Source: an uncultured Acidobacteriota bacterium (GTDB lineage: Bacteria > Acidobacteriota > Thermoanaerobaculia > UBA5066 > DATFVB01). From it: a stretch of 64,000 nucleotides of DNA. This document shows, in pieces, positions 9,090-57,837 of this stretch. The position numbers and the translations under genes were made by a program. The notes beneath the pieces were generated by a model. That model saw only the letters and a list, made by a program, of their open reading frames with translations. It made no database searches and was not told the origin of the DNA. The stretch lies in the NCBI GenBank assembly GCA_963714035.1, contig OY970224.1:2549831-2613830 (forward strand). The letters are read 5' to 3'. Positions within the stretch are counted from its first letter, which is position 1. Each line of letters begins with the position of its first letter.

Positions 9090-9092
9090 TGT

Positions 9093-15585: not shown

Positions 15586-15657
15586 CCGAATGGGAAGCAC
15601 GATGAAGCGCGGCGAGGCGCGCCCGTAGTCGCTCGATGTATCGCCGCGTTTGCTACT

Positions 15658-15867
15658 TCAGGCGCGGCGCCGGGTGACCATGCATATATCCGGCGAGTCG
15701 TCTTCCTTCGTCCGACGGTGGAGGTATCGCGTGGAGTCGCCGCCGGGTCCCTGGGACTGCTTGAGCCCGTTGCGGCCGCAGGCCGGGCAGATCGCGATGA
15801 CGCCGCTGCGGTTGTCGACGGTTTCGCCGAACTCCAAACCGGTGTAATCGAATTCCTCGGAAGCCAC
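15658..15867 (-). CDS. Small peptide gene (69 aa), candidate precursor peptide of the downstream modification operon
   Basis: GGAGGTG RBS with 7-nt spacer to the GTG start. Translation MASEEFDYTGLEFGETVDNRSGVIAICPACGRNGLKQSQGPGGDSTRYLHRRTKEDDSPDICMVTRRRA. It is hidden inside a long antisense ORF of the PQQ-dehydrogenase gene. Confidence 0.45.
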   Translation of the reverse strand: MASEEFDYTGLEFGETVDNRSGVIAICPACGRNGLKQSQGPGGDSTRYLHRRTKEDDSPDICMVTRRRA

Positions 15868-15993
15868 GCTCGCACCTCCGGAACCGATGGGGGACCGAGA
15901 CGATGGCGGGATTGTAGCACCGTGCGGCATCGGCCTTGCACCCTCGGAGCCCACGTTCCGGTGTGGTCCGGAACGACCTCGGAGGGAGACACG

Positions 15994-18900: not shown

Positions 18901-19263
18901 CACGGGCTGTCCTACGGCTGCACCGACGGCACGCAGTTCGGCTCGACGTTCTGTCCGTCCACGACGATGACCCGTCGAACCATGGCGGTCATGATCGCCC
19001 GCGATCTGGCCGGCGGCGACTCCTCCGTGCCCTCAAAGCTCGCCGATCCCGGCAACGGCCGCGGCTACGACTGCACCGACGGCGGCGCCAACGCATTCTC
19101 CGACGTTCCCGATTCCGACGCCGCCTGCAAATACATCTATTTCATCTGGTCCAAGAACGTCGTGGACGGGTACGCCAACGGACAGTACGGACCGGAGAAC
19201 TCCGTCGAGCGCGGCGAGATGGCGAAATACCTCACGAACGCCTACAACCTCACGCTTCAGTAG
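15994..19263 (+). CDS. Large secreted PQQ-dependent sugar (glucose/sorbosone) dehydrogenase-like beta-propeller protein with PKD domain and three C-terminal SLH domains
   Basis: GGAGGGAG RBS then GTG. Signal peptide. SGDH-like motifs (IRPTVVRFSPDGRIFVAEKSG). PKD-like segment (TYAWDLTGDG). Three SLH-like repeats (F.D....W..). Confidence 0.65.
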   Translation: MLFRSRYRILAGLAFSLAAAFPRPLAAQSETLPPGFHDSIVISGLIRPTVVRFSPDGRIFVAEKSGIVKVFPSLTATTPTIFADLTTNVDNYWDRGLLGMALDPAFPSNPYVYVLYAYDAPIGGTAPVWNDGCPTPPGPNTDGCVISGRLSRLTANGNVMTGAENVLINAWGQQFPSHSLGALQFGADGALYASDGDGASMGTVDYGQFGGNPLGDPPGGVGGTMQPPWAEGGALRAQSLRRQPGEPAVLNGTVVRVDPSTGNGLPDNPLASSSDPNARRIVAEGLRQPFRFTFQPNTNKLWIGDVGNEVWEEIDVAPSPTSEVRNFGWPCYEGPDQEPDWVSAQVNICMNDLYKNPSVVTAPFLGYRHSDSVVSGDGCATGGSSITGMAFYNGGSYPSQYDGALFFADHTRNCAWVLFPDASGQPNASNRALFIGAASYPVDLEIGPGGDLFYVDHEGGAIHRIQYMTPAALATATPQSGAPPLSVQFDGSGSHGASPGDTLTYAWDLTGDGLFNDSTAVSPAKTFSVAGQYTVRLKVTDEHGVSGVSDPLTVTVSQGAPSPVIDAPASSLTWKVGDPISFSGHATDPQDGALPASALTWTLIMHHCPSNCHTHEIQTFAGVSSGSFSAPDHGYPSFLELQLTATDSLGLTGTTSVLLQPKTVVLKFAASPSGLLLDAGNGKIATPFSETVIVGSTNTISAASPESLNGSAYWFDGWSDSGAQTHSIVAGAGSVTYTATYISQGDVMAPQSAMVEGRSPYPPSTTEPNGVAESGETVPFAPSWKNTSDGTVAGTTGTITSFTGPAGGGAAYTVVEGNASYGDIAAGATASATGYQLKVTANARPADHWDATVSEALDTSEAHDWTLHIGRSFSDVPPANTFYSDIETILHHGVTVGYGNRVFGPLDTTPRDQMSAFISRAHTGGDQNVPVSGSVPGLGTYNCKSGGHSLFSDVAPTAEFCKNIHWIVAHGLSYGCTDGTQFGSTFCPSTTMTRRTMAVMIARDLAGGDSSVPSKLADPGNGRGYDCTDGGANAFSDVPDSDAACKYIYFIWSKNVVDGYANGQYGPENSVERGEMAKYLTNAYNLTLQ

Positions 19264-19386
19264 ACGCCCGGCGCGAACGCCCGTCGTTGCAGAGGGTTGA
19301 ACGCGGGCACGTGTCTTGCTCTTCCTCCCTTTCGGAGGTGGCGAGTGAACAGACTCGGCACACCTCAAGCAAAGGGGATGATGAAA

Positions 19387-21333
19387 GGACTTTCGCTCAC
19401 TGCCCGCCCGACGTGTCGAGTTCGAGGGATCTCGGCGGCGTGGATCGTGTGCGCGGCTCTCGCGGCGCCGGCGGCGGCGGCCGTCGGCAAGTGGTCGAGC
19501 CTCGGGCCGGAAGGCGGACTCGTCAGCGCGCTGCTGCCGGATCCCGCCTCGCCGTCGGTCGTGTGGGAAGGGACGTACGGCGGCGGCCTCTTCGTCAGCC
19601 GCGACTCGGGCTCGAGCTGGTCGCGGATTCCGACCGGAGGCGCGGGAGCGGTCGTCAACGGCCTGGCCGCCGGCGCCCCGGGCCTCTTCGCCGCGACCGA
19701 CGACGGGATCCTTCTCTCGGTCGACGGAGGAAAATCGTGGGCGCTCGCCAATTCGGGCCTTCCCGAGGCGACCGTGTATTCGGTCGCCGTGGACGCGGGA
19801 GGAATCGCGTACGCGGGCACCCAATCGAGCGGCGTCTTCCGGTCGGCCGATGGCGGACGGTCCTGGTCGGCGACCGCCGCGCCGGCGGCGCAGGCGGTCT
19901 ATGCGCTCGCGACCGACCCGGCCCACGCGGGGCGGATCTGGGCGGGCACCGCGGGCGCCGGCGTGTTCGGCAGCGCGGACGGCGGTGCGAGCTGGACGGC
20001 GGCCGCCGGGCCGATCGCGTCGGCCTTCGTCCTGGGCCTGGAAATCGATCGGTCGAATCCTTCGACCCTGTGGGCAGCGACATTCGGAGAGGGCGTCTGG
20101 AAGAGCGACGACGGTGGTACGACATGGACGCCCTCCGCTTCTCCTTTTTCTTCGGCGAGCGTCTACGCGGTCGCCGCGGATGCAGGCGCGCCGGGAACGG
20201 TCTGGGCCGGTACGCTCGACGGAGGCGTCTGGCGGAGCGACGACGGCGGGACGAACTGGCGGGCCGCCGCGCCCGCGACGTCGCGTGCCACGGTCTTCGC
20301 TCTCGGGACTGATCCCCGGTCTCCGGGAACGCTCTGGGCGGGAACGAACCTCGGCACGTTTCGAAGCGCCGACGGCGGCGCGACGTGGACGGCCGGCAAC
20401 CGCGGAATGAACGGCACCGTCGTCAACGCGATCACGGCGACCCCGGGGGCCGTGTACGCGGCGACCGGAGGAAGCGGGATCCTGCGCAGCGAAGACGGCG
20501 GCGCCACCTGGCAGCCCGTGGAGATCGGCGCGTTGACCGTATTCGCGCTGTCTCGCGCCGGTGTGGCGATGTACGCGGGCACCGATCAGGGGCTCTGGAC
20601 GTCTTCCGACGGGGTGTCCTGGAGCGCTTCCGCGGGAATTCCCGGAACGAACAACGTGTATTCGGTCGCCGTCGATCCGGCCAATCCGGCCGTCGTGTAC
20701 GCGGGGACCTACCTCGGCGGACTGATGCGGAGCGTCGACGCCGGCGCGAGCTGGTCGGCGGTGACGCTCGGTTCGGCAAACGAGACCGTGTTTTCGATCG
20801 CGATCGCTCCGGGCGGCGGATTCCTCTACGCGGGCACGGGCCATGGACTGTTTCGCAGCATGGATCACGGCGTCAGCTGGACGGCCATTCAAAACGGCTT
20901 CACCGGCTCCGTCTTCTCGATCGCGCTGGACCCGAGCGATCCGTCGCGAGTCTTCGCGGCCGTGGACGGCGGCGGGGTCTGGGCGAGCATCGACGGCGGC
21001 CAGACCTGGCGCTCGTCGGGCGCGGGAATGCCCGGCAGCGTCTACAGCCTCGCTTTCGATCCTTCCGGGGAAGCGCTCTACGCGGGGACGGCGGGCGGCG
21101 GCGTCTTCCGGAGCTCGAACGGCGGTTCGAGCTGGACGGCCGTCAACGCGGGCCTCACCAACCCCACCGTCTTCTCGCTCGCCTTCGACCCCGCGGCGCC
21201 GTCGATCCTCTACGCGGGGACGTACGGCGGCGGAGTCTTCGGATACGAGCCCGCGGCGGCGGCGCCGCCGCCCCGCCGCTCCGTCGCGCCGGCGGTTCGT
21301 CCCCTCGCCTCCGAGATTTCCGGCCGGCGTTAG
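19387..21333 (+). CDS. Secreted BNR/Asp-box repeat protein (sortilin/VPS10-like or photosystem-II-stability-factor-like beta-propeller)
   Basis: AAAGGGG RBS, MMKGLS start, signal peptide. More than 12 repeats of S.DGG.SW. Confidence 0.65.
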   Translation, partial: GLSLTARPTCRVRGISAAWIVCAALAAPAAAAVGKWSSLGPEGGLVSALLPDPASPSVVWEGTYGGGLFVSRDSGSSWSRIPTGGAGAVVNGLAAGAPGLFAATDDGILLSVDGGKSWALANSGLPEATVYSVAVDAGGIAYAGTQSSGVFRSADGGRSWSATAAPAAQAVYALATDPAHAGRIWAGTAGAGVFGSADGGASWTAAAGPIASAFVLGLEIDRSNPSTLWAATFGEGVWKSDDGGTTWTPSASPFSSASVYAVAADAGAPGTVWAGTLDGGVWRSDDGGTNWRAAAPATSRATVFALGTDPRSPGTLWAGTNLGTFRSADGGATWTAGNRGMNGTVVNAITATPGAVYAATGGSGILRSEDGGATWQPVEIGALTVFALSRAGVAMYAGTDQGLWTSSDGVSWSASAGIPGTNNVYSVAVDPANPAVVYAGTYLGGLMRSVDAGASWSAVTLGSANETVFSIAIAPGGGFLYAGTGHGLFRSMDHGVSWTAIQNGFTGSVFSIALDPSDPSRVFAAVDGGGVWASIDGGQTWRSSGAGMPGSVYSLAFDPSGEALYAGTAGGGVFRSSNGGSSWTAVNAGLTNPTVFSLAFDPAAPSILYAGTYGGGVFGYEPAAAAPPPRRSVAPAVRPLASEISGRR

Positions 21334-46342: not shown

Positions 46343-46703
46343 GGGGGCGAAACGGTTTCGACGGGGTCGCCTGGTCGAAACGTCGCATGCCGAGGTTCAC
46401 TCGCCTCGTAAAATAGGGTGAAAAAAATAGTTGCGAACAGCAACCTCGCACTGGCCGCCTAATTAAAAACTAGGTAATGGTCACGTCCTTCCCGGAGCGC
46501 GCCCATCGCGCTGGAAAAGGGCGTCGCAAACATGGGCTCGTTCGGCAGGGTCCCCCGGCCCGGCCGGAGACACCAATTCGGGGCAGGGTCGGCGCGTTTG
46601 GTTCCTCTTTGAGCGCCGGCCCGAGATCAAAGAGGAACTGAGCATGGAGTGGCGTTCCGTTCCACTTCTCCGGACGCGGGTTCGACTCCCGCCGCCTCCA
46701 CCA
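46343..46703 (+). ncRNA. ssrA: tmRNA (SsrA), tag peptide ANSNLALAA
   Basis: 5' GGGGGCGAAACGGTTTCGACGGGG...GCATGCCGAGG...CTCGTAAAATAGG (tRNA-like domain and PK1 match the E. coli ssrA pattern). Tag reading frame GCGAACAGCAACCTCGCACTGGCCGCCTAA. 3' GGACGCGGGTTCGACTCCCGCCGCCTCCACCA T-arm/acceptor/CCA. Confidence 0.85.
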
Positions 46704-46904: not shown

Positions 46905-47700
46905 AATCCTCCTCCGCTCGATTACTTCGCGGAGACTAATCGCGCGGTGACCTCCGCGGCTCGGGCTGAGCCCTCGACCGCTCCGGCGCCCCACCAAAGA
47001 GAGGCACGTCGCGACCTCGCGGAGCTCGGATCGCGAGCTTGCCTCATAGCAGTAGCGCTCGCGGGATATCCAGCGCCTTCCGTCGCTTGGCGACGGAGTT
47101 GCCACGGAGTGGCGGGCGCGCCAGCGCAGGCGCGTCGATCGACAAGCACGCCAGTGTGAAGTCCATCGCCGCGCGATTTCCGCAGCGGCCGCCAAATACA
47201 CGAATACAGGGCCGTCCCCACGCCGATCTCCCCACGCCGATTCAGGACCGCCCCAAAGCCCCGTGACGACAGCGACCGTGCGGCACAACCGCGGAGGGGG
47301 AACCCCAAGGTGCAAAATAAAGATCTGACCCCAGACCTCTCCCGTGACGGTCCCCGCGGCGGGCCTCCCGGCACTCATCGTTCTGGGACTGGCTCTCGCC
47401 GCCGCGGGCGCCGTTCGATTCTCCCGAATCTCCTGATTTCAGCGCTTCCAGGGTGAAGCACCGAAGCCTCTTGCTCGCCAAGGCGACCGGCGCGCTTGGC
47501 GCTGACGCGCCGGCCGCTTCGCGGCTGCGACTCACGTCGCGCGCTGGAATTTCTTCGGCGAGACTTTTCGCGTCGCGACCTCCGCGGCTCGCTTTCTCGG
47601 CTCGACCTCAGCGGTGCCCCACCCACCAAAGAAAGACAACTCGTGACCGCGAAATACATGAAAACAGGGCCGTCCCCAGAGTTCCTCCACATCCCAATTC
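46905..47700. repeat. Repeat-rich spacer (family B copy in reverse orientation at 46915-46995, partial copy ~47570-47625) between ssrA and the low-GC island
   Basis: TTACTTCGCGGAGACTAATCGCGCGGTGACCTCCGCGGCTCGGGCTGAGCCCTCGACCGCTCCGGCGCC is the reverse complement of the family B core. No convincing gene. Confidence 0.5.
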
Positions 47701-48005: not shown

Positions 48006-49721
48006 ATGACTGAGCTAGCTTGGGTCGGAAAGAAGGCGGTCGAGAACCATCATCGGGAGGTTCCATACCGACTCCTGAAGTGCGATCCATCGCTCTCCGT
48101 GGGTGACCCGGAGGACGGCAACCTCCTTGTCGAGGGAGACAATCTCGAAGCCCTGAAGGCCTTACTTCCCTTCTATCGCGGCCAGGTCAAGTGCATCTAC
48201 ATCGACCCGCCGTACAACACCGGTCAGGACGAGCGCGACTCCGAAGGGCGCAGGACGGGGTGGATCTATAGCGACAACCTCAATAGCCCAGAGATACGTG
48301 AGTGGCTTGGACGCGTAGTGGGGAGTGAGGCCGACGATCTTTCCCGGCACGATAAGTGGCTCTGCATGATGTATCCAAGACTCTCTCTCCTTAAGGACTT
48401 CCTGCGTTTGGACGGCGCACTCTTCGCCAGCATCGACGAAAATGAGTATGCCAACTTGCGAGCCTTACTCGACGAGATATTTGGAATCAGGAACCGGGTT
48501 GGAACTATCGTGTGGAAGAACGCTACGGACAATAACCCCACAAATATCTCTCTGGAGCACGAGTACGTTCTTTGCTATGCGCGGGACAAGGCCCACCTTC
48601 CTGCGGAGTGGAAGTCAGAAACACTCGCGGTAAAACAGCGGCTCTTGAAGGTCTCGCAAGATTTCCTTGACTCGTTTCCCGACTCGGCTGATCGACAACG
48701 GGCATATTCGACTTGGCTCCGCGACAATAAGGCCTACCTCTGGCCCCTTCAGGACTACAAGTTCATCGACGATGGCGGGGTATTCACTGGGATGCGAGCC
48801 GTGCACAACCCCGGCAAAGAAGGTTACCGATACGACGTCATCCATCCGCGAACCGGCAAGCCATGTGCCCAGCCGTTGATGGGATACCGTTTCCCCGAAG
48901 AAACGATGAAACGACTCCTTGGAGAGGGACGAATTATTTTCGGCGAAGACGAAAGCAAGATCGTCGAACTGAAGGTGTATGTTAAGGAGTACCGGGCGAA
49001 ACTCTCAAGCGTCTTCGAGTTGGACGGTCGCGTGGGGACAAATGAGCTCAAGGAGATCTTTCCAGAGAATCGGCGTCCGTTCGACTTTCCGAAGCCCACA
49101 GCCTTGATCGAGGAACTCATCAGCTTCACGTCGACCGAAGACGATCTTATCCTTGATTCGTTTGCCGGAAGTGGAACCACCGGGCACGCAGTCCTTAAGC
49201 TTAATAAAGCGGATGGAAAGCGCCGCAGGTTCATCCTCGTTGAAATGAAGCCGGAGATCTCGCGTGAAATCACCGCGGAACGCGTGAAGCGCGTCGCTGA
49301 GGGCTACGTTAACGCAAAGGGTGACCGGATCGAGGGCCTGGGGGGTGGCTTCCGATATTGCAGGCTTGGGGACGGGCTCTTTAGTTCGGACGGCCAGATC
49401 ACGGACTCGGTCTCGTTTGCCGATCTTGCACGCCACGTCTTTTTCGTGACGACCGGTCAGCCGTCTCAAAACGGCGGCAAGAAATCCAGCCCGTTCATAG
49501 GTGCCCACGGCGAGACAGCCGTCTACCTCCTCTACAACGGAATACTCGGCGACAGACGACCAGGAAGCGGCAACGTGCTCACTGGAAGGGTTCTAGCAGA
49601 ACTCCCTGAGCATTCTGGCCGGCGAGTGGTTTTCGGGGAGGCAACGACGCTGTCGCGGGCGCGTCTTCGTCGTGAAAACGTCGAGTTCCGGCAGATCCCA
49701 TACGACGTGAGGTCCTGCTAA
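48006..49721 (+). CDS. mod: Type III restriction-modification system methyltransferase (Mod; N6-adenine, beta class)
   Basis: Motif IV IYIDPPYNTG precedes motif I FAGSGTTG. Region GC content visibly lower than flanks. Confidence 0.8.
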   Translation: MTELAWVGKKAVENHHREVPYRLLKCDPSLSVGDPEDGNLLVEGDNLEALKALLPFYRGQVKCIYIDPPYNTGQDERDSEGRRTGWIYSDNLNSPEIREWLGRVVGSEADDLSRHDKWLCMMYPRLSLLKDFLRLDGALFASIDENEYANLRALLDEIFGIRNRVGTIVWKNATDNNPTNISLEHEYVLCYARDKAHLPAEWKSETLAVKQRLLKVSQDFLDSFPDSADRQRAYSTWLRDNKAYLWPLQDYKFIDDGGVFTGMRAVHNPGKEGYRYDVIHPRTGKPCAQPLMGYRFPEETMKRLLGEGRIIFGEDESKIVELKVYVKEYRAKLSSVFELDGRVGTNELKEIFPENRRPFDFPKPTALIEELISFTSTEDDLILDSFAGSGTTGHAVLKLNKADGKRRRFILVEMKPEISREITAERVKRVAEGYVNAKGDRIEGLGGGFRYCRLGDGLFSSDGQITDSVSFADLARHVFFVTTGQPSQNGGKKSSPFIGAHGETAVYLLYNGILGDRRPGSGNVLTGRVLAELPEHSGRRVVFGEATTLSRARLRRENVEFRQIPYDVRSC

Positions 49722-52310
49722 GTGGAGCTCAAGGGCTACCAGTCTCGTTCGCTGGAACGGCTGGGCGACTTCCTTACGAAAGCCAAGGAAAGAAACCCGA
49801 AACTCGCTTTTATTGAGATGACCGAGAGGCCGTATGTAACCGCGGCGCTCCCGGCAGAACTTCGAGATATACCCTACGTCTGTGTGCGCGTCCCGACGGG
49901 CGGTGGAAAGACGTTCATGGCCACTCACGCGATCCCCATCGCGGCAAAGCGATATCTCGAGCGCGAATATCCTCTGACTGTCTGGCTGGCTCCCACAAAT
50001 ACGATCGTCTCTCAAACGCTCCGAGCCTTGAAGAACCCAAGGCATCCTTATCGGCAAGTGTTGGATGGTGCTTTCGCCGGGAACGTTTCGCTTATGACAC
50101 TAGTTGAGGCGCTGTCGGTCACGCCTTCGACGATCGCTGGTAGCGCAACCGTTATCGTGTCAACGCTCGCCGGCCTTAGGACCGAAGACACCGACGGCCG
50201 AAGAGTGTATGAGCAGAACGGTGCTCTTCAGGCCCATTTTTCCGAGCTAACTGCCGGGGAGCGAGCGAGGCTCGAACGAGACGGCGATGGGCTTGCGTCG
50301 ATGAGTCTTGCTAACGTCTTGCGTCTCCACCGCCCGCTCGTAATCGCCGATGAGGCGCACAATGCGCGAACCGCCCTATCCTTCGAGATGTTTAGACGGA
50401 TCGCGCCCGCCGCGATCGTGGAGTTCACGGCGACGCCGGACCAGGAACGGAACCCAAGCAATGTGCTCTGCCATGTCTCCGCCTTAGAACTGAAGGCGGA
50501 GAAGATGATCAAGTTGCCAATTCGGCTCGTGACGCGCGAAGAGTGGCGGGACGCCGTCACTGACGCGATTGGGAAGGTCGAGGGGCTTCAAGAGGCGGCA
50601 AACGAGGTGCAAAGGGAGACCGGGGAATACATCCGTCCGATCGTCCTCCTTCAAGCGCAGCCGAGGAACGAGACGCGGGAAACAGTTACGATCGAAGTTC
50701 TGAAGGCCTCTCTCATCAAGGACTTTCGGGTCCCTGAAGACCAGATTGCGGTAGCGACCGGCGAAACGGACGACCTCCCCGATGACATCCTCGACCCCTC
50801 GTGCCCGGTACGCTTCGTCCTTACGGTACAAAAGCTTCGTGAGGGATGGGATTGCCCGTTCGCCTATGTCCTCTGCAGCGTGTCTCACATCTCAACAGCA
50901 AGGTCGGTTGAGCAGGTGCTGGGCCGGATTCTTCGCATGCCGCGCGCCGAGACCAAGAGCCGGGAAGAACTGAACCGGGCATATGCCTTTGTCACATCCT
51001 CGGATTTCTCCGGAGCGGCCCGATCCCTGGAGGACGCGCTCGTCGAAAGCGGGTTCGAGAGATTTGAGGCTGCAAAAATGATCGAAGGCGGCCCTCCCCC
51101 CCTGTTCCCATTTCCGGAAATCGTCGTCGACGAGGAATTTGAAGAGGCGCCAAGGATCGATCGGCTCTCGGCGAGCCTTCGAAACCGCCTCCGTATCGAA
51201 AATAACCCGTCGGGTTCGGGCGCGCGGGTCGTTTACACAGGCCCAGGCCTGACTGGCCTTGAGGAACGAGAATTGTGCTCGGCAGCTCATGGCGATACCG
51301 GCATGGTGTCTGCGATCAAACTCGCCAGAAAGAGCCGTGGCCAACCAGTCTTTCCCGCTGCGATGGGTGTCGAGCTTTCGATTCCTCAACTTTCGATTCG
51401 CATGGGCAATAGGCTCGAGCTATTTGAGGACCAATTTGCGGGCGTGCCACCCGAACTCGACCCGGAGGATGCGAAGTTGGACGACGACGCCTTCCCTCGA
51501 TACGAAGGGCCAAGACCGGCGCTGGACATCGACATCGACGACCGCGGTTCGGTTGCCGGCTCCGTTCAGTCCGTTGTGTTCGATCGCCCATTGCCGTATT
51601 TTGGTCTCGGTCAGCCGACCCCGGCGGCGCTGGCGGTCTGGCTAGACCGAAACATCCCTCATCCGCTGGTTCCCGCGAGGAAGAGTGAGCCGTTTATGAG
51701 GGAGGTCATCGAATACCTCACAGCTGGGAGAGGCATACCGTTTGAGGAGCTCAAGGCTTCGCAGTTTCGGCTTCGCGACGCCGTTGAGCGTCGGCTGACC
51801 CAGATTCAAGACAAGGCGCGCGGACAGGCTTTCCTTGAGTTTGTTGAGGCAAGCGGGGCGGCCAGCCTCACGGTCGATCCTTCGATCTGTTTCTCGTTTG
51901 ACCGGAATGGCTATCCCGCCAACCAGCTTTACACCGCGACGACGTTCCGAAATCACTACTACGAGCGCCCGGGAGACATGAATGCAGAGGAGGCCAACTG
52001 TGCCCTCACCATCGATTCACTTCGGGAGATTGACGTGTGGGTTAGAAACCTGGAACGGCGGGAGAGGTTTTCTTTTTGGCTTCCGACCTCGACCGATCGC
52101 TTCTATCCCGATTTTGTTGGTCGGTTAAGGGACGGCCGGTTTCTGGTGGTCGAGTACAAGGGCGCTCACCTCATGGACACTTCGGATACCAGAGAAAAGA
52201 AAATGGTCGGCGAGCTGTGGCAGGAAAAGAGTCAGGGAAAATGCCTTTTTCTTCTCGTTGGAGGAGACACCTTGAGTCGGATAGCTCTTGCGGCTCGTTC
52301 TGCCCGGTGA
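49722..52310 (+). CDS. res: Type III restriction endonuclease Res subunit (SF2 helicase-nuclease)
   Basis: GTG start directly after the mod stop. Walker A PTGGGKTF, DEAH-box IADEAHN, helicase C-terminal motifs. Confidence 0.8.
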   Translation: MELKGYQSRSLERLGDFLTKAKERNPKLAFIEMTERPYVTAALPAELRDIPYVCVRVPTGGGKTFMATHAIPIAAKRYLEREYPLTVWLAPTNTIVSQTLRALKNPRHPYRQVLDGAFAGNVSLMTLVEALSVTPSTIAGSATVIVSTLAGLRTEDTDGRRVYEQNGALQAHFSELTAGERARLERDGDGLASMSLANVLRLHRPLVIADEAHNARTALSFEMFRRIAPAAIVEFTATPDQERNPSNVLCHVSALELKAEKMIKLPIRLVTREEWRDAVTDAIGKVEGLQEAANEVQRETGEYIRPIVLLQAQPRNETRETVTIEVLKASLIKDFRVPEDQIAVATGETDDLPDDILDPSCPVRFVLTVQKLREGWDCPFAYVLCSVSHISTARSVEQVLGRILRMPRAETKSREELNRAYAFVTSSDFSGAARSLEDALVESGFERFEAAKMIEGGPPPLFPFPEIVVDEEFEEAPRIDRLSASLRNRLRIENNPSGSGARVVYTGPGLTGLEERELCSAAHGDTGMVSAIKLARKSRGQPVFPAAMGVELSIPQLSIRMGNRLELFEDQFAGVPPELDPEDAKLDDDAFPRYEGPRPALDIDIDDRGSVAGSVQSVVFDRPLPYFGLGQPTPAALAVWLDRNIPHPLVPARKSEPFMREVIEYLTAGRGIPFEELKASQFRLRDAVERRLTQIQDKARGQAFLEFVEASGAASLTVDPSICFSFDRNGYPANQLYTATTFRNHYYERPGDMNAEEANCALTIDSLREIDVWVRNLERRERFSFWLPTSTDRFYPDFVGRLRDGRFLVVEYKGAHLMDTSDTREKKMVGELWQEKSQGKCLFLLVGGDTLSRIALAARSAR

Positions 52311-52357: not shown

Positions 52358-55300
52358 ATGCAAGTCGAGCATTCGGCTCTCCAGCTGTCGGCCTCCGATC
52401 TTGGCCGCTTCCTTTCCTGCCGGCACTGCACAGCGCTCGACGTGGAGGTTGCGGCGGGTACTCGGGCCGCGCCCTTTTTCGCCGATCCGTTCCTCGAAAT
52501 GCTTGCGAAGCGGGGGCTGGAACACGAGAAGAAGTACCTCACCTCGATCAACGATAGCAGTGATAAAGTCCTTAATCTCGCAGGTCTTTCACATGCAGAG
52601 GCCGAAGATCGGTGCCTTGAAGCGATGCAAACAGGACGGAGGGCAATCGCGCAGGGTGTTCTTCGCAGCCGCGAGCTCTTGGGGGTGCCCGACGTCCTCC
52701 AGCGGGTCGAAACCCCCAGCGGTCTCGGTTCGTGGTCCTACGAGGTTTACGACACGAAACTAGCGCGGGAGACACGCGGCACGACCATTCTTCAGCTCTC
52801 GCTTTATTCGGAGCTCCTCGGGGAAACGCAGGGACTCCTTCCGGATAGCTTTCACGTCATCACCCCCAATCCATTGAAGCCGCGTCAATCGTTCCGAGTC
52901 GCGGACTACGCGGCGTTCTACCGATTCGTTCTGCGAGGATTGAAGGAGATGGTCGGTCAAGAGTCATCCAAGCTGCTCGACGCGAACTATCCGGAGCCGG
53001 TCGACTATTGCGACGTTTGCCGCTGGGGAGGCCAGTGCGACAAGCGGCGCCGCAAGGACGACCATCTCTCGCTCGTCGCGGGCATGACGCGGCTCCAGCG
53101 GCGGGAGTTGGAACCGCGCGGCATCATCACGCTCGCGGCATTGGGCCGACTTCCCGTTCCGCTGGCCTTCAAACCTCAACGCGGCTCGAAGGAGTCGATC
53201 GAGCGGGTCTGCAACCAGGCGCGCGTGCAGCTCGAGGAGAGGGAGATCGGAAAGCCCGTGCGGGAGCTGCTCGAGCCGATCGAGGCCGGCCGCGGCCTCG
53301 CAACCCTTCCGCTCCCTTCGATCGGCGATGTCTTCCTCGATCTCGAAGGCGACCACTTTGCGCGCGAGGGCGGACGAGAGTATCTCTTCGGTCTCACGAT
53401 CCTCGAGGCTGGCGGGAGGACGCGACACGTCAAGCTCTGGGGGCATTCGGATACTGAAGAGAAGGCCGCGTTCGAGAAGACCGTGGACGAGATCCTGACT
53501 TCGTGGGCGGCCCACCACCAGATGCACGTCTATCACTACGCTCCGTACGAACCGTCCGCGTTCAAGCGCCTCATGGGCCGGCACGTGACGCGGGGGACGG
53601 ACATCGACAAGATGCTGCGGTCGCGACTCTTCGTAGACCTCTACGCTGTGGTCAGGCAGGGTCTCCGGGCGAGTGTCGAGAAATACTCGATCAAGGATCT
53701 CGAAAAGTTCTACGGCTTCGAGCGCCAGGCGAAGCTTTTCGATGCCGGCGCTGCGCGTCGATTCATCGAGCAAGCGCTCGAGGCTGAGGACCCGGAGAGC
53801 ATTCCGGCTGAAATCCGAACGCTCGTCGAGAACTACAACGAGGAAGACTGCGTGTCGGCTCTCTGGCTGCGGGATTGGCTCGAGAGTCTGCGAAAGGAGC
53901 TCGAAGAGGGGGGCACGGCTGTTCCGCGGCCGCTCCCCGGCGACGGCGAGATTTCGGAAAAGGCGGAGGAGAGAAACGCCGAGGTCCAGGCCGCCATGGA
54001 CGCGCTCCTGGCCGGAGTGCCCGCCGAGAAGAACGAGCGAAGCCGCGAAGAGCATGCGAAGTGGCTGCTCGCCCACATGCTCGAATTTCATCGCCGCGAA
54101 GACAAGGTCACGTGGTGGGAGTTCTTCCGGCTGAGCGACCTCGTGGAAGAAGACGACCTGTTGGACGAGCGGGCCGCCGTCGCCGGATTGGTGTTTGTCC
54201 AGCGACTTCCGCTCAAGGGCAGGGAGAAGACGCCGGTCGATCGTTACACCTTCCCGCCCCAGGAGTTCGAGGCGGACAAGAAAGACAAGCTCTACGTCCA
54301 CGGTGGAACGATGCTCGGCACCGTCGTGGCGTTCGATGCGGCATCCCGTTCGGTGGACGTCAAGAAGACAATAGCCAGCGCCCAAAACCACCCCCGGTCG
54401 GCTTTCATTCATTCCCGGTTTCCTCCCGACACGATGGAAACAGCGCTCATGCGGCTCGCGAGCCAGGTGATCGCTAGCGGACTCGACAGTGTGGCAAGCG
54501 CGGCGCGCGACTTGTTGCTCGGCAACGCTCCGCGTTTGAAGAGCGGGACCCATGCCCGGAAAGACGGCGAGGACCGTGTCGAGTGGGCGAAGCGGACCGT
54601 CCTCGATCTCGATCGTTCCATTCTTCCGATCCAGGGGCCGCCGGGAGCGGGGAAGACTTACACCGGCGCGCGAATGATCCTGGATTGCGTCCGAAATGGC
54701 TTGAAGGTCGGCGTGACGGCCGTGAGCCACAAGGTCATCGAGAATCTGCTCCGAGCCACCCGAAAGGCGGCCGCCGACGCCGGCGTTCCGTGGACGAGCA
54801 TTCGGAAAGTGTCGGATCTGAGCGAGGTGCCCGAGCCCGGGATCGACGAAACGACCGATGCCGCCGAAGTGCGCGCCGCGCTCGACGCCGGCCGCGCCCA
54901 GGTCGGCGCAGGCACCGCCTGGCTCTGGGCGCATGTGGACTTCGCAGACTTCCTCGACGTCCTGTTCGTCGATGAAGCGGGGCAGGCATCGCTCGCAAAC
55001 GTCCTCGCCATGGCGCAGTCGGCAAAGAGTGTCGTTTTGCTGGGTGATCCGCAGCAGCTTCAGCAACCTCAGCGCGGCACGCACCCGGATGGCGTCGATG
55101 CATCGGCTTTGCAGCACCTGCTGGGCGACGAGAAGACGATTCCCGACGAGAAGGGAATCTTCCTTGAAGAGACCTGGCGGCTGGCGCCGTCGATCTGCCG
55201 GTTCACATCCGACCTCTTTTACGAAGACCGGCTCAAACCGAGACCGGGGCTCGATCGGCTCTCGCTCTCAGGCGTACCTCCGTATGAAGGCACCGGCCTG

Positions 55301-55786
55301 TGGTTCGCTCCGGTAGAACACGACGGCAACCGCGATGTGTCGCCCGAGGAAGTGGCCGCCGTCGAGGCCATCGTCGGTCGCCTTCTCGCCGAGGGGAGCG
55401 TATGGACGAACGAGAAGGGCGAGACGAAACCGCTTGGCGCGCGGGACATTCTCGTCGTTGCTCCGTTCAACCGCCACGTCAACCGGCTGCAGGAGGCTAT
55501 CCGCAGCCGCGGCGTGAGCGTCGGCACCGTGGACAAGTTCCAAGGGCAGGAGGCCGCCGTCGTGATCTATTCGATGGCGACTTCGCGCCCGGAGGATGCC
55601 CCGCGTGGAATGGAATTCCTCTATAGCCTCGACCGATTCAACGTCGCCACTTCTCGGGCCCGCTGCGCCTGCATTCTCGTCGCGAGCCCGCGGCTCCTCG
55701 AGCCGGACTGCAAGACGCCTCGTCAGATGCGGTTGACCAACGCCCTCTGCCGGTATGCGGAACTGGCGCACGTGGTCTACTTGTAA
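52358..55786 (+). CDS. Nuclease-helicase fusion: TM0106-type RecB-like nuclease + RNase H-like (YprB-type) 3'-5' exonuclease + SF1 Upf1/Dna2-like helicase
   Basis: N-terminal SASDLGRFLSCRHC (RecB/Cas4-like), Cys cluster YCDVCRWGGQCD, DLEGD exonuclease motif. C-terminal Walker A GPPGAGKT, Walker B VDEAGQ, GDPQQL, VDKFQGQE and ATSRAR motifs. Confidence 0.7.
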   Translation: MQVEHSALQLSASDLGRFLSCRHCTALDVEVAAGTRAAPFFADPFLEMLAKRGLEHEKKYLTSINDSSDKVLNLAGLSHAEAEDRCLEAMQTGRRAIAQGVLRSRELLGVPDVLQRVETPSGLGSWSYEVYDTKLARETRGTTILQLSLYSELLGETQGLLPDSFHVITPNPLKPRQSFRVADYAAFYRFVLRGLKEMVGQESSKLLDANYPEPVDYCDVCRWGGQCDKRRRKDDHLSLVAGMTRLQRRELEPRGIITLAALGRLPVPLAFKPQRGSKESIERVCNQARVQLEEREIGKPVRELLEPIEAGRGLATLPLPSIGDVFLDLEGDHFAREGGREYLFGLTILEAGGRTRHVKLWGHSDTEEKAAFEKTVDEILTSWAAHHQMHVYHYAPYEPSAFKRLMGRHVTRGTDIDKMLRSRLFVDLYAVVRQGLRASVEKYSIKDLEKFYGFERQAKLFDAGAARRFIEQALEAEDPESIPAEIRTLVENYNEEDCVSALWLRDWLESLRKELEEGGTAVPRPLPGDGEISEKAEERNAEVQAAMDALLAGVPAEKNERSREEHAKWLLAHMLEFHRREDKVTWWEFFRLSDLVEEDDLLDERAAVAGLVFVQRLPLKGREKTPVDRYTFPPQEFEADKKDKLYVHGGTMLGTVVAFDAASRSVDVKKTIASAQNHPRSAFIHSRFPPDTMETALMRLASQVIASGLDSVASAARDLLLGNAPRLKSGTHARKDGEDRVEWAKRTVLDLDRSILPIQGPPGAGKTYTGARMILDCVRNGLKVGVTAVSHKVIENLLRATRKAAADAGVPWTSIRKVSDLSEVPEPGIDETTDAAEVRAALDAGRAQVGAGTAWLWAHVDFADFLDVLFVDEAGQASLANVLAMAQSAKSVVLLGDPQQLQQPQRGTHPDGVDASALQHLLGDEKTIPDEKGIFLEETWRLAPSICRFTSDLFYEDRLKPRPGLDRLSLSGVPPYEGTGLWFAPVEHDGNRDVSPEEVAAVEAIVGRLLAEGSVWTNEKGETKPLGARDILVVAPFNRHVNRLQEAIRSRGVSVGTVDKFQGQEAAVVIYSMATSRPEDAPRGMEFLYSLDRFNVATSRARCACILVASPRLLEPDCKTPRQMRLTNALCRYAELAHVVYL

Positions 55787-55875
55787 CACCAACATGACCA
55801 TTAGAAGAACTATGAAGCCAGACTGCACCACGAGTGCGCGCCTCTAGACTGGGAGGAACGGAAAGGAGTGGGAGG

Positions 55876-56580
55876 ATGACGGAATTCTGGGATCCCTTCT
55901 GCGGTTACTATACACAGCCTCTCCTCGAGGTAAATCGTGAAATCGAAAAGTGGAGCACTGAGAATAGCGTCCACAACTATGCCTCGACAACATTGCATTT
56001 TGAGAGAATTCTCGGGAAGCTCGAGGGAGATCGCGCGGGAAGACTGCTTATACTCTTGGAGTCGCCATCCACACCGTTTCCAGTTCAGAGCTGCGACTCA
56101 GATCCACAGGACGAAGGCAACGGAGCATTTCGCTACTTTTGCTTAACTGCTGGTGACTGGGAGATGCTTCGCCTGGAGAAGCTAGGGCCACGACCAAAAT
56201 GGCCGTCGGAATTTGACAATGAAGCGTATTGGGCCGCCTATGCAAGAAGCTTGGCAGACCTTCCGTACAATGGGCTGATTGCGTTCGTGTTATGGCGCCT
56301 CATGCCCGCTGCGGCCTACGTTACGAATCTTTTTAAAAGCCCGAAGGGCCGCGTTCCGGAGAGCTTCTTTGCTAGGGAGTTCGGGTACTTTCGGCCGACG
56401 AAGGTGTTGAGTCTGACGCCGACTTACGTAAAAACTGTCGAGCAGCTGGCGCAGCATCTAGGCAACGCTTTCAGCCTAAAGGAAATCAGATTTGACTATT
56501 CGTGGCATCCTACCTCTCGAAAGAGTTCTGCAGAACGAAGCGGCCGCCTGAAATCAGCCTTAGCCGCCCTCGCGGATTGA
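55876..56580 (+). CDS. Hypothetical protein, low-GC (island cargo)
   Basis: GGGAGG RBS then ATG (MTEFWDPFCGYY...). AT-rich codon usage unlike the host. No recognisable motifs. Confidence 0.5.
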   Translation: MTEFWDPFCGYYTQPLLEVNREIEKWSTENSVHNYASTTLHFERILGKLEGDRAGRLLILLESPSTPFPVQSCDSDPQDEGNGAFRYFCLTAGDWEMLRLEKLGPRPKWPSEFDNEAYWAAYARSLADLPYNGLIAFVLWRLMPAAAYVTNLFKSPKGRVPESFFAREFGYFRPTKVLSLTPTYVKTVEQLAQHLGNAFSLKEIRFDYSWHPTSRKSSAERSGRLKSALAALAD

Positions 56581-56599: not shown

Positions 56600-57125
56600 G
56601 TCTTCCATTCATTCTCTGGGGCCAGATCCGGGGGCTTCATCAGATCTGTGTTTTCCGCTGTGGGTATCGGGATGATGATGCCCCCGAACTTGTCACCGGG
56701 AGGTCTTGGGGTCAGATCTTTATTATGCATTGAGGTGGATTGGCCAGCCCTTCGGCCGGTATCGCGAACACTGATAAACGATTAGAAGGCCGTCCCCATC
56801 GGGTCCACGCCCCGAAACGCCAGAATGATCGCGCGAGCTATCGCTTCAGCAGAACCCCCGCTCCGGCCAGGAGTGCCGCGAGGAGCAGGTGGCTTAGGGG
56901 TCAGATCTGTGTTTTCCACTATGGCATCGGGACGCGGATTCCCCTACGGATGAGAACTCGCGTCCCATCCAGGCCGGATGTCGACGCATCGCGAACGCTT
57001 AATGATTAGAGGACGGTCCCCGTCGTCCCCATCGGGTCCACGCCCCGAAACGCCCAGAATGATCCCGCGAGCTATCGCTTCAGCAGAATCCCCGCTCCGG
57101 CCAGGAGTGCCGCGAGGGCGATGAG
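56600..57125. repeat. Tandem duplication (~250-bp unit x2) that includes a copy of the 3' end and downstream region of the 57072..57626 gene
   Basis: CCCCATCGGGTCCACGCCCCGAAACGCC.AGAATGATC.CGCGAGCTATCGCTTCAGCAGAA.CCCCGCTCCGGCCAGGAGTGCCGCGAGG occurs at ~56795-56885 and ~57030-57120. Each is preceded by GGGGTCAGATCTGTGTTTTCC.CT.TGG.ATCGGGA. Confidence 0.6.
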
Positions 57126-57626: not shown

Positions 57627-57837
57627 CGTGATCCTCCCTGTCCGCGGTTGACGATAGCACGACCTCTCGGAACGTCGATGGGGGCGGTTCGTCGTTTCAT
57701 GCATTATTTGCGCAAGACTGGTCTTGCGGTCAGCTGTTCCTGGGGTCAGTTCTTTATTTATGCATTAGCGGAGAAGGATTTGGGCTCAGCCGTGGCTTTG
57801 TTTTTCCCGCGCAACGGGAAACGGGCGCCGGGAGTCG

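Follow-up and report, generated by a model that had tools for sequence, protein, structure and literature searches.

A gene in the 64,000-nucleotide stretch of DNA that we analysed (the window) encodes a 1142-aa nuclease-helicase that we regard as a plausible single-gene, DNA-end-degrading defence candidate, its role in defence being suggested by gene context. We favour, at somewhat better than even confidence, the explanation that the protein is a machine for processing DNA ends, which works alone as a single polypeptide and is carried as island cargo. It consists of three parts: a Cas4/Dna2-type Fe-S PD-(D/E)xK nuclease is followed by a DEDDy 3'-5' exonuclease-like domain (PF13482) and then by an SF1B Upf1/Dna2-like helicase, and all of their catalytic residues are intact.

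A low-GC island adjoining a tmRNA gene

The locus is a low-GC, horizontally acquired defence island that adjoins a tmRNA gene, and the nuclease-helicase gene is part of its cargo. The island has the following features:

46343..46703, plus strand: tmRNA gene, left edge of the low-GC island (ARAGORN; Rfam RF00023, 190 bits)
47311..47348, minus strand: left-hand copy of the "GGGGTCAGATCT..." element, in the opposite orientation to the copies on the right
48006..49721, plus strand: Type III R-M methyltransferase, Mod (PADLOC MTase_III 5.9e-169; Pfam N6_N4_Mtase)
49722..52310, plus strand: Type III R-M restriction subunit, Res (PADLOC REase_III 1.7e-135; Pfam ResIII)
52358..55786, plus strand: nuclease-helicase gene (TM0106/COG2251 family with C-terminal helicase), confirmed ORF, 1142 aa
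55876..56580, plus strand: orf234, divergent UDG-superfamily gene (AF2; Pfam UDG matches of its relatives)
56692..56924, plus strand: right-hand copies of the "GGGGTCAGATCT..." element, core copies at 56692-56729 and 56888-56924

The ORF at 52358, the motifs quoted for it, and its neighbours were all found where a sequence-only reading of this DNA had placed them, and the Type III R-M pair and defence island which that reading had described were borne out. The start of res abuts the stop of mod, and the nuclease-helicase gene follows the end of res in the same orientation after a 47-bp gap, in which no terminator-like site above chance was found. Between 48 and 57 kb, the GC content drops from about 0.68 to 0.53-0.63; the individual values are 52.8% for orf234, 56.3% for mod, 58.5% for res, and 63.4% for the nuclease-helicase gene, and the flanks have about 68%. 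In a 38-nt inverted repeat (I1), 47311-47348 is 79% complementary to 56692-56729. A 12-mer of this repeated element occurs in the 64-kb window only at 47321, 56708, 56897, and 57742, and between its right-hand copies lies a duplicated 3' tail of a DUF11 gene (56820-56883, matching 57054-57117).

Family and domain architecture of the nuclease-helicase

The protein belongs, at full length, to the TM0106/COG2251 family: it matched NCBIfam TIGR03491, "TM0106 family RecB-like putative nuclease", over aa 11-508 with 220.8 bits (cut-off, 97.45 bits). It represents the long, helicase-fused form of this family (TIGR03491; COG2251; RNase H-like family F.13, Majorek et al. 2014) and can be aligned over its whole length with hundreds of homologues of about 1,140 aa so named by NCBI, with no structural differences from them; more than 7,500 homologue clusters were found at this full length. 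The architecture of a DUF83/Cas4-like PD-(D/E)xK nuclease, PF13482, and a tandem AAA/helicase was already described in 2014 (PMC3985635). The family is large and uncharacterised, and our literature search did not find a paper on its function.

The three-part domain reading made from the sequence was upheld by matches to TIGR03491, PF13482, and AAA_11/AAA_12. The gene is divided as follows, all on the plus strand:

52358..53062: N-terminal Cas4/AddB/Dna2-type "iron-staple" PD-(D/E)xK nuclease domain, aa 1-235 (TIGR03491, alignment)
53330..53881: RNase H-fold DEDDy 3'-5' exonuclease-like domain, aa 325-508 (PF13482, alignment)
53882..54592: central helical segment, small beta-barrel, and stalk, aa 509-745 (AF2 secondary structure)
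54593..55765: SF1B Upf1/Dna2-like helicase core, aa 746-1136 (Pfam, alignment, PDB sequence matches, Foldseek)

Conservation was assessed with an alignment of 20 homologues (54-71% identity). In the N-terminal nuclease domain, which contains SASDLGRFLSCRHC at aa 11-24, the residues D112, D132-T-K134, and Q146...Y150, as well as C21, C218, C221, and C227, were invariant or nearly so. The second domain matched Pfam RNase_H_2 (PF13482) at aa 325-508 with an E value of 1.1e-17, contains DLEGD (aa 328-332) and HVYHYAPYE (aa 390-398), and showed invariant D328-x-E330, D427, and Y493-x3-D497. PF13482 has been grouped with predicted 3'-5' exonucleases akin to the PolB exonuclease domain (PMC3985635). 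The helicase core matched Pfam AAA_30/AAA_11/AAA_12 at aa 746-1110, and its Walker A motif GPPGAGKT (aa 760-767), DEAGQ (aa 872-876, within VDEAGQ at aa 871-876), and motifs III, V, and VI were invariant; DPQQL, FQGQE, and ATSRAR lie at aa 897-901, 1061-1065, and 1097-1102, respectively.

In a PDB sequence search, the protein matched the helicase cores of Ighmbp2 (3.7e-15), Upf1, Sen1, and Dna2. The AF2 model of the whole protein (pLDDT 71.4, pTM 0.58) had Dna2 (5EAN) as its top Foldseek match in the PDB, over about 1,070 columns, followed by Ighmbp2, Upf1, and Sen1. Its central segment consists of helices at 534-580, strands at 612-669, and helices at 692-749, parts of them at low confidence, and may correspond to the Dna2/Upf1 barrel and stalk. 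The pLDDT is low in the loops that bear the Cys residues, which is to be expected because the Fe-S cluster was not part of the model, and since the model is only moderately confident, the domain arrangement should not be trusted in detail.

Distribution and neighbours of the homologues

The phylum spread of the nuclease-helicase is patchy (Acidobacteriota, Alphaproteobacteria, Bacteroidota, Chloroflexota, and others), and 59 full-length copies lie on plasmids, while no copies were found in the phages searched. All five of the nearest relatives with usable context (63-70% identity) adjoin Type I or Type III R-M or BREX: P0008 lies beside Type I R-M and SIR2, 14 nt upstream of hsdM; P0013 beside BREX and a WYL regulator; P0016 beside BREX, GmrSD, and a BrxC_BrxD/DEAD helicase set; P0006 beside a Hhe-like helicase, Type I R-M, TIR, and Mrr; and P0011 beside SNF2, Type III R-M, and SIR2. 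Three of these five contexts (L091, L095, and L097) represent one chromosomal hot spot in related genomes and therefore are not independent samples. WYL regulators can also govern damage responses.

Among more distant relatives (55-57% identity; plasmid copies, 36-48%), the neighbours included an integrase, PLD-SNF2, Abi, HEPN, SIR2-ATPase, a Ubl/E2/E1 operon, and dynamin. A defence-type gene lay within four genes at 24 of the 80 distant genome loci and was absent at the other 56, as scored with a limited reference set; the density of such genes was 7.1% at positions 1-4 and 3.4% farther out (Fisher p=0.011). The immediate neighbours at distant loci also included housekeeping genes (peptidases, MFS transporters, and TonB receptors), and no conserved neighbour was found across the 80 loci. 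Two nuclease-helicases that are 44% identical each lie directly upstream of a SNF2 and Type III R-M cassette of the same kind, whose proteins are 66-74% identical between the two loci. Overall, the homologues recur near R-M, BREX, SIR2, TIR, HEPN, Abi, PLD-SNF2, Hhe-like, and ubiquitin-like systems and on plasmids; an even spread across core genomes outside defence islands, the pattern that the sequence-only reading had set against its own proposal, was not seen.

orf234, the downstream gene

The 234-aa product of orf234 (MTEFWDPF...), for which the sequence-only reading had recognised no family, is a member of a divergent and rare clade within the UDG superfamily. The low GC content noted for the gene was confirmed. 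Its ATG is preceded at 7 nt by AAGGAG. About 30 relatives were found among 1.84e9 representatives, and 20 of 26 relatives matched Pfam UDG (PF03167), whereas the window protein itself did not; its AF2 model has a pLDDT of 87.9. The nearest glycosylases are of the family-4/UdgX/BdiUNG type, and the motifs "QDP", "ITNxxKC", and "HPAA" appear in the consensus of the family along with four Cys, as in Fe-S UDGs. The window copy is without the family CxxC, has KS for KC and ESP for QDP, and misses about 40 C-terminal aa. It is thus probably degenerate, and its glycosylase activity is doubtful.

Proposed mechanism and alternatives

For each of the three activities, we infer polarity and substrates by homology. 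The SF1B motor would load where a free 5' single strand or a single-strand/double-strand junction is available and move 5'-to-3', as Dna2 and the bacterial Dna2-like Bad do. The N-terminal Fe-S PD-(D/E)xK domain would cut the tracked strand, and the DEDDy domain would trim the displaced 3'-ended strand; one protein could therefore shred linear or nicked foreign DNA. Its likely substrates would be restriction fragments, from the adjacent Type III R-M or from Type I R-M or BREX in relatives, together with the ends of phage genomes and intermediates of rolling-circle or recombination processes. A circular chromosome would give no entry point, which would discriminate self from non-self, and the protein may be a portable RecBCD/AddAB-like "finisher" of invading DNA.

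An alternative that we consider possible, if rather unlikely, is that the protein is a DNA repair or recombination enzyme, either a Dna2/AddAB-like one for double-strand-break resection or flap processing or an analogue of the MrfA helicase and MrfB(YprB) exonuclease, which serves the host or the carrier mobile element and whose island location merely reflects accessory status. Among solved structures Dna2 comes closest, MrfB/YprB has the PF13482 fold, and the YprA/MrfA helicases paired with MrfB/YprB are described as DNA repair-related. Rv1251c of M. tuberculosis may be relevant here. The imuA-imuB-dnaE2 and dinB genes next to the copy on a Rhizobium plasmid and the SbcD/SbcC-like genes next to those on Sphingobium plasmids likewise suggest DNA repair, and many distant loci have housekeeping neighbours. 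However, there is neither conserved synteny nor a conserved partner, the distribution is patchy and includes plasmids, the window copy lies inside a low-GC island, and defence-type genes are enriched nearby, with the neighbours of the nearest relatives being overwhelmingly R-M, BREX, and other immune genes. It is less probable still that the methylation-based system next to the gene has the protein as an obligate accessory subunit, with mod, res, and the nuclease-helicase gene as the unit of a new unwinding and degrading restriction enzyme of the kind that Wilkinson et al. put forward for Bad. The close, co-oriented placement behind res, the 14-nt spacing of P0008 from hsdM, the Type III R-M adjoining the gene at two further loci, and the constant presence of the Bad gene beside a Type III-like methyltransferase in Geobacilli (PMC7430649) would all fit, but the neighbouring system varies in type (Type I, Type III, or BREX) and side even among close relatives. 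Moreover, the window Mod shares only 34% identity with the L097 Mod and the window Res had no BLAST match at E<=1e-10, the nuclease-helicases of the two loci being 69% identical. No methyltransferase lies close to the gene at most of the distant loci or in most of the plasmid copies, and the window Type III pair is complete by itself.

We hold it to be very improbable that the target is RNA, as proposed for some Upf1-like helicases of defence systems such as Mokosh and CoCoNuT, and that the DEDDy domain is an RNase. The helicase core has Mokosh MkoA and MkoC as its best PADLOC matches and the RNA helicases Ighmbp2, Upf1, and Sen1 as its nearest solved cores by sequence, yet the N-terminal Fe-S Cas4/AddB/Dna2-type domain belongs to a DNA nuclease family, the best whole-protein structural match is Dna2, PF13482 groups with the DNA polymerase B proofreading exonucleases (PMC3985635), and the neighbours are DNA-directed systems. 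Least credible to us is the two-gene system that had been proposed from the sequence, in which the orf234 protein would be a sensor or partner. The two genes are co-oriented, 89 bp apart, and in the same island, but co-occurrence contradicts their partnership: no orf234 homologue was found at any of 95 other helicase loci (tblastn E<=0.01; also phmmer), and no nuclease-helicase was found at the five loci carrying orf234 relatives, whose contexts are unrelated. The GC contents of the two genes also differ (52.8% and 63.4%), and the window orf234 looks degenerate. orf234 is independent island cargo and not a partner of the nuclease-helicase.

Comparison with known systems

Dna2 and Bad of Geobacillus stearothermophilus (Wilkinson et al. 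2020, PMC7430649) resemble the 1142-aa protein in that a single chain begins with an iron-staple Fe-S RecB-type nuclease and ends with an SF1B helicase. Bad, a bacterial Dna2-like protein, was demonstrated to translocate 5'-3' and to act as an ssDNA endonuclease; its gene adjoins one for a Type III-like methyltransferase, and its authors suggested a new restriction enzyme (PMC7430649); the 1142-aa gene likewise follows Type III R-M. However, the central domain of Bad, compared here by description, was reported as unrecognisable, and Bad proteins are relatively few according to its authors (PMC7430649), whereas our protein has a DEDDy exonuclease-like domain and its TM0106-type family more than 7,500 clusters. 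Dna2 lacks the DEDDy domain found here between nuclease and helicase, and its sequence similarity is confined to part of the helicase.

Nhi of Staphylococcus epidermidis, a single nuclease and helicase polypeptide that degrades phage DNA replication intermediates (PMC11084316, PMC10732053), follows the same general logic as that proposed here. However, the "Nhi/Hna-like" label did not hold as membership: the PADLOC Nhi model was not matched, the PADLOC matches were confined to the helicase core (MkoA, MkoC, and DpdJ), and the N-terminal 747 aa matched nothing in PADLOC even at E<=10. Neither the extra DEDDy domain nor the Fe-S Cas4-like nuclease is known to be a feature of Nhi. Hna of Sinorhizobium meliloti and E. 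coli is a single helicase and nuclease abortive-infection protein that confers phage resistance (PMC10732053). It resembles the 1142-aa protein in combining both domain types in one chain, although a PADLOC Hna match was absent. In Hna, an SF2-type helicase is N-terminal and the nuclease C-terminal, so that the domain order is reversed and the helicase superfamily different. By its PADLOC matches, the 1142-aa protein is a member of neither Nhi nor Hna.

RecBCD, AddAB, and AdnAB perform helicase-coupled dual-strand degradation of linear DNA, as proposed for the 1142-aa protein, and RecBCD destroys restriction fragments and phage DNA. AddB carries a nuclease of the same iron-staple type (PMC7430649). 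These enzymes differ from the 1142-aa protein in being multi-subunit and Chi-regulated, with SF1A UvrD-like motors (plus RecD), C-terminal nucleases, and genes that belong to the housekeeping core.

Domain architecture and predicted active sites of the nuclease-helicase

The open reading frame at 52358-55786 on the forward strand is real, and its product has 1,142 amino acids. The sequence-only reading had divided this protein into a TM0106-type nuclease start, an RNase H-fold exonuclease signature, and an Upf1/Dna2-like helicase core. Every motif that it quoted was found in the translation, and the three-part reading was borne out by HMM searches (TIGR03491, PF13482, and AAA_30/AAA_11/AAA_12). 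The distances to the neighboring genes are 47 bp upstream and 89 bp downstream. The NCBIfam model TIGR03491, "TM0106 family RecB-like putative nuclease," matched residues 11-508 over model positions 2-462 of 462, with 220.8 bits against a curated cutoff of 97.45. Within this region, Pfam RNase_H_2 (PF13482) matched residues 325-508 (E = 1.1e-17). Closer to the C terminus, AAA_30, AAA_11, and AAA_12 matched residues 746-1110. The closest solved sequences were the Upf1-like SF1B cores of Ighmbp2, Upf1, Sen1, and Dna2.

We aligned the protein with 19 homologues of 54 to 71% identity (alignment A1) and found the following residues to be invariant or nearly so: the PD-(D/E)xK residues D112 and D132-x-K134 of the Cas4/DUF83 type, the RecB/Cas4-specific QxxxY motif (Q146...Y150), four "iron-staple" cysteines (C21 and C218-x2-C221-x5-C227), the DEDDy residues D328-x-E330, D427, and Y493-x3-D497, and the SF1 helicase motifs GPPGAGKT (760-767), DEAGQ (872-876), LLGDPQQL, TVDKFQGQE, and VATSRAR. 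By this conservation, the window copy has kept all three of its predicted active sites intact. AlphaFold2, run on A1, gave a model of moderate quality (pLDDT, 71.4; pTM, 0.58), with low confidence in the cysteine loops and part of the linker. Its top PDB match in Foldseek was Dna2 (5EAN; E = 9.8e-20 over about 1,070 aligned columns, with a TM-score of only 0.34 to 0.37), followed by Ighmbp2, Upf1, Sen1/SETX, and nsp13. The best description of the protein is a Dna2-like Fe-S nuclease and an SF1B helicase that are separated by an inserted DEDDy exonuclease-like domain.

Size and spread of the TM0106/COG2251 family

The nuclease-helicase is a member of the TM0106/COG2251 family and showed every family feature for which it was tested. 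A word-indexed search, with 8,000 scored candidates, returned at least 7,522 protein clusters at E ≤ 1e-3. The best 120 of these 7,522 clusters had 1,095 to 1,267 residues, the same Pfam set, and a query coverage of 89 to 100% (97% or more in 114 of them). A scan of one genome per species gave 80 loci with homologues of 40 to 55% identity in the Acidobacteriota, Alphaproteobacteria, Bacteroidota, Chloroflexota, Planctomycetota, Myxococcota, and other phyla. On plasmids, tblastn found 59 full-length copies, 26 of which were on conjugative plasmids; NCBI labels the plasmid homologues "TM0106 family RecB-like putative nuclease." In one of them, on Rhizobium johnstonii pRlX2 (locus L083, 9001-12397), the homologue is annotated as two overlapping coding sequences, a "TM0106 family nuclease" (9001-11049) and a "DEAD/DEAH box helicase" (10958-12397), pointing to a frameshifted or split copy. 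No homologue was found in phage records, and the sole PHROGs match was to the helicase core, of unknown function; a phage origin was rejected. Rv1251c of M. tuberculosis may be a member of the family.

Majorek et al. (PMC3985635) had described the architecture in 2014. Their family F.13 corresponds to COG2251; it combines PF13482 with a DUF83 PD-(D/E)xK domain and, frequently, AAA domains in tandem, and was classed with predicted 3′-5′ exonucleases. Our literature search found no functional study of the TM0106/COG2251 family. [quoted passage not shown]

The island in the window

The nuclease-helicase gene lies in an island of lower GC content with the following features:

46343-46703, +: tmRNA gene (ARAGORN; Rfam, 190 bits; tag peptide ANSNLALAA)
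48006-49721, +: mod, Type III R-M
49722-52310, +: res, Type III R-M
52358-55786, +: nuclease-helicase gene
55876-56580, +: orf234, encoding 234 amino acids
57072-57704, -: DUF11 gene, with the border element in its upstream region
47321 (-); 56708, 56897, 57742 (+): 'GGGGTCAGATCT...' element, present on both strands and confined to the island borders and the upstream region of the DUF11 gene
47311-47348 (-); 56692-56729, 56888-56924, 57733-57763 (+): 'GGGGTCAGATCTTTATT(A/T)TGCA' copies of the same border element

The pair upstream of the nuclease-helicase gene is a complete Type III R-M system (PADLOC MTase_III, 5.9e-169; REase_III, 1.7e-135), in which the start of res abuts the stop of mod. 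The GC content changes stepwise from 0.563 in mod to 0.585 in res, 0.634 in the nuclease-helicase gene, and 0.528 in orf234, with flanks of about 0.68, and the unequal values of the four genes suggest a mosaic acquired in pieces by separate events. The tmRNA gene lies directly to the left of the island, and such genes are classic insertion sites of islands. The window has neither an integrase or transposase nor a remnant of WYL, and the 3′ end of the tmRNA gene is not repeated, so that a classical integrase-type island was rejected.

Copies of the border element flank the mod-res-helicase-orf234 block as an imperfect inverted repeat of 38 nt. We considered these repeats as transposon ends and discarded this explanation, as no target-site duplication was visible and the DUF11 gene also has the element in its upstream region. 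The copies are more likely to be remnants of the 5′ region of a gene, because of this position and because part of the 3′ end of the DUF11 gene is itself duplicated (56820-56883) within a duplication of about 115 nt (56767-56883 versus 57000-57117). The C terminus of the DUF11 protein has a hydrophobic stretch and a basic tail and appears to resemble a PEP-CTERM-type sorting signal. In the Logan assembly, this locus is interrupted immediately 3′ of orf234. A scan for promoters and terminators gave nothing above shuffle expectation and is therefore uninformative on cotranscription.

Defense genes near the nuclease-helicase and its relatives

The interpretation of the locus as part of a defense island gained support from its genomic context. 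R-M or BREX genes adjoin all five of the nearest relatives for which context was available. The gene of relative P0008 (70% identity) is followed 14 nt downstream by hsdM and then by hsdS, SIR2_2, hsdR, and HepT/MNT. That of P0006 (69%) overlaps a DUF4011-AAA_11/12-nuclease (Hhe-like) gene, after which Type I R-M, TIR, and Mrr genes are found, while SNF2, Type III Mod, RhuM, Type III Res, and SIR2_2 genes lie downstream of P0011 (69%). Both P0013 (64%) and P0016 (63%) have BREX genes downstream (BrxB, BrxC, PglX, and PglZ for P0013); upstream, the former has a WYL-WCX regulator and DUF2779, and the latter has NERD-UvrD, three BrxC_BrxD genes, a DEAD helicase, and GmrSD. Two more distant relatives have an integrase 1.4 kb upstream with PLD and SNF2 genes downstream (P0040) or a PLD-SNF2 fusion directly upstream (P0109).

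The neighbors of the plasmid copies included SIR2, an ATPase, and KTSC on two plasmids and, on others, a multiubiquitin/E2/E1/DUF6527 operon; a restriction endonuclease together with dynamin and WYL; Abi and DUF4011; HEPN and DUF3883; or VapBC, an integrase, and HNH. In total, about 15 of 18 annotated contexts (the window, seven genome or metagenome contigs, and 10 plasmids) had recognizable defense genes within 10 kb. Among the 80 genome loci, matches of the defense type lay at most four genes away in 24. Their density was 7.1% (37/520) at positions 1 to 4 versus 3.4% (16/466) further out (Fisher p = 0.011), in a comparison of near with far neighbors within these loci, which were searched with a home-made reference set drawn from annotated neighbors. 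Since this set is incomplete, the counts of defense neighbors are lower bounds.

Three loci (L091, L095, and L097) represent one chromosomal hot spot in related genomes and are not independent samples; they share the left flank and helicase genes of 86 to 91% DNA identity, and the defense cargo downstream differs in each. An SNF2-Mod-Res cassette is common to L097 and another locus, L053, with proteins 66 to 74% identical, and the adjoining nuclease-helicases are only 44% identical. The nuclease-helicases of the window and L097 share 69% identity, yet the Type III pair in front of the window gene is of quite another kind. Association with such systems thus recurs in a modular way. All-against-all clustering of four genes on each side across the 80 loci ruled out a conserved partner gene, the largest neighbor family being present in only nine. 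This family is a DEAD/Cas3-like helicase with PADLOC matches to SngC, DpdF, and BrxHI, often together with BrxC_BrxD-type ATPases. The direct neighbors were mixed, with helicases, Mrr, GmrSD, PIN, and a TrwC relaxase as well as ordinary housekeeping genes, among them peptidases, MFS transporters, and TonB receptors. Overall, the nearest relatives give a strong context signal, and the function is proposed through guilt by association.

Several neighbor sets recur. At least five loci (L095, 5728-9735; L105 [H33], 14269-19393; L019; L023; L057) encode a second Upf1-like helicase-nuclease no more than three genes away from the TM0106-helicase, whose stop codon it overlaps in one. It consists of DUF4011, AAA_11/12, and an MTES_1575 nuclease, which is the "Hhe" architecture. 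WYL(-WCX) regulator genes are found beside the nuclease-helicase in L092/L093 (3433-6010), L095 to L097 (a WCX remnant), L036 and L078 (position -1), L086 (7898-8881), and L090. DUF2779 (PF11074), which comes after the WYL gene in L092, is a sister family that has the same PD-(D/E)xK and RNase H-like architecture without the helicase. The WCX fragment of L095 and L097 has 93% DNA identity to part of the L092 gene; the helicase genes have only about 72%. The same set of SIR2 and an ATP-binding protein of about 600 residues (plus KTSC) is present on two rhizobial plasmids (L083, 13632-16858; L087, 12717-15805) and in Shimia (L029, positions +1 and +2). In five loci (L009, L015, L020, L024, and L094, 1911-8065), one or more BrxC_BrxD-type ATPase genes and then a DEAD/Helicase_C/Cas3-like_C helicase gene of about 730 codons, whose product matched SngC, DpdF, and BrxHI in PADLOC, lie beside the nuclease-helicase gene; this set is possibly an unnamed multigene system. 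On a Phenylobacterium plasmid (L089, 5618-8975), a multiubiquitin/E2/ThiF-E1/DUF6527/hypothetical operon ends 19 nt before the nuclease-helicase gene; L058 and L019 likewise have homologues of E2 and E1 close to this gene.

orf234, a divergent gene of the UDG superfamily, and the two-gene proposal

The downstream gene orf234 starts with the ATG at 55876, behind AAGGAG, and encodes a protein of 234 residues (MTEFWDPF...). This protein had no match in Pfam, NCBIfam, PADLOC, or the PDB sequences, and a word-indexed search returned one distant relative only. When 1.84 billion representatives were scanned exhaustively with HMMER, 30 proteins reached E ≤ 1e-3, the majority with 200 to 400 residues. 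Their alignment (A3) has the consensus GSYAS..HFE, LFQDPR, HRYFCLT, AYITNLAKCH, and HPAAR and four conserved cysteines. Pfam UDG (PF03167) matched 20 of 26 relatives (best, 3.6e-7), with the window copy unmatched. The best PDB matches of the family profile were family 4 uracil-DNA glycosylases, at a weak E of 0.04 to 0.9, and a confident AlphaFold2 model of orf234 (pLDDT, 87.9; pTM, 0.88) showed weak agreement with the UDG superfamily in Foldseek. The orf234 family is a clade of the UDG superfamily and has the UDG fold. In A3, the window copy has a deletion of about 19 residues that takes out the CxxC, with loss of the cysteine ligands, as well as the changes of KC to KS and of motif A from QDP to ESP; motif B (HP) is retained, and the C-terminal ~40 residues are absent. 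The gene is probably in decay or changed in function. Two giant proteins, P0123 (2,924 residues) and P0147 (2,123 residues), have 13 and 4 stretches, respectively, matching orf234 residues ~97-153, a segment that seems to exist as a tandem repeat elsewhere.

The sequence-only reading had proposed that the two genes form a possible two-gene system. This proposal found no support, because the orf234 relatives are located elsewhere without the helicase (0 of 5 loci) and the other helicase loci are without orf234 (0 of 95). The contexts of the relatives were unrelated, with one among housekeeping genes, one beside an rve transposase, and one among hypothetical genes.

Proposed function and alternatives

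The analysis gave three intact catalytic modules in a Dna2-like arrangement, encoded by an accessory, mobile, and island-associated gene. SF1B helicases move 5′ to 3′, the iron-staple nucleases of Cas4, AddB, and Dna2 cut single-stranded DNA, typically the 5′ strand, and DEDDy domains are 3′-5′ exonucleases. The nuclease-helicase would enter at free ends or nicks and then unwind the DNA, with the tracked strand being cut by the Fe-S nuclease and the displaced 3′ strand being digested by the DEDDy domain, so that linear or broken foreign DNA would be destroyed. The chromosome would be spared by having no ends, and, where present, a neighboring methylation-based system would make the first cut. 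We consider a defense role of this DNA-end-shredding kind to be somewhat favored and regard the protein as a single-polypeptide nuclease-helicase defense candidate from a family that is known to databases and functionally uncharacterized. We suggest only tentatively the broader proposal that long TM0106/COG2251 proteins are a very widespread, hitherto unrecognized single-gene immune effector. Such a portable, Chi-independent "DNA shredder," repeatedly recruited beside methylation-based systems, would combine a 5′-3′ motor, an Fe-S 5′-strand nuclease, and a 3′-5′ exonuclease and would destroy DNA marked or nicked by Type I R-M, Type III R-M, or BREX.

A serious rival is that mobile elements carry the protein as an enzyme of repair or resection. 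The further neighbors of plasmid copies include imuA-imuB-dnaE2 with dinB and SbcD/SbcC-like genes, and R-M or BREX genes adjoin the nearest relatives; we judge this rival rather unlikely. It is improbable that the adjacent R-M or BREX system has the protein as an obligate subunit, acting as a new restriction enzyme as suggested for Bad, the Dna2-like enzyme of Geobacillus stearothermophilus (PMC7430649); these systems are next to all five nearest relatives with context and vary in type from locus to locus. An RNA target, to which the Upf1-like helicase core could point, is very unlikely beside two predicted DNA nuclease modules, and a two-gene system with orf234, adjacent in the window and missing at the other helicase loci, is the least credible of all.

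If the family is a defense effector, more than 7,500 protein clusters from many phyla, now described only as "putative nuclease," would gain a function, and defense catalogues would gain a new single-gene system whose nuclease half is unmatched in PADLOC v2. The DNA-shredding reading, if true, would also answer the open question of the Bad study on the purpose of bacterial Dna2-like enzymes, which would be to complete the destruction of DNA that R-M or BREX has attacked. Should the repair reading hold instead, mobile elements would be spreading a new end-resection enzyme. As a compact enzyme with three activities in a single chain, the protein could interest work on coupled unwinding and degradation. 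The negative result with orf234 means that adjacency within an island is no evidence for a shared system.

Comparison with known systems

The sequence-only reading had likened the protein to Nhi and Hna, a label that found no support, as PADLOC searches at E ≤ 0.01 and E ≤ 10 gave matches to the helicase core only. With PADLOC-DB v2.0.0, the strong matches were limited to MkoA, MkoC, and DpdJ, with mad8, RecD, and PDC-S37 at E > 0.01, and the N-terminal 747 residues had zero matches even at E ≤ 10. There was no match to an Nhi model, the presence of which in this library is unconfirmed. Hna was not matched either; it has an N-terminal helicase and a C-terminal nuclease, whereas the order here is nuclease, exonuclease, and helicase. 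The matches to Mokosh (MkoA/MkoC) were limited to the helicase core (residues 867-1130), and the PLD domain is absent from the nuclease-helicase. The PADLOC models place it outside Nhi, Hna, and Mokosh.

An N-terminal iron-staple Fe-S RecB nuclease and a C-terminal SF1B helicase are shared with Dna2 and Bad, as seen in the motifs, the cysteine pattern, and the top match to 5EAN, and this combination defines the Dna2-like class (PMC7430649). The phmmer match to Dna2 was confined to residues 1029-1112 (E = 1.9e-8), and the central domain of Bad, compared by description only, differs from that of the nuclease-helicase. Mycobacteria have a "second class" of Dna2-like proteins (PMC7430649). By analogy, the mode of action of the nuclease-helicase may resemble that of Dna2 and Bad and, in concept, that of Nhi or RecBCD.
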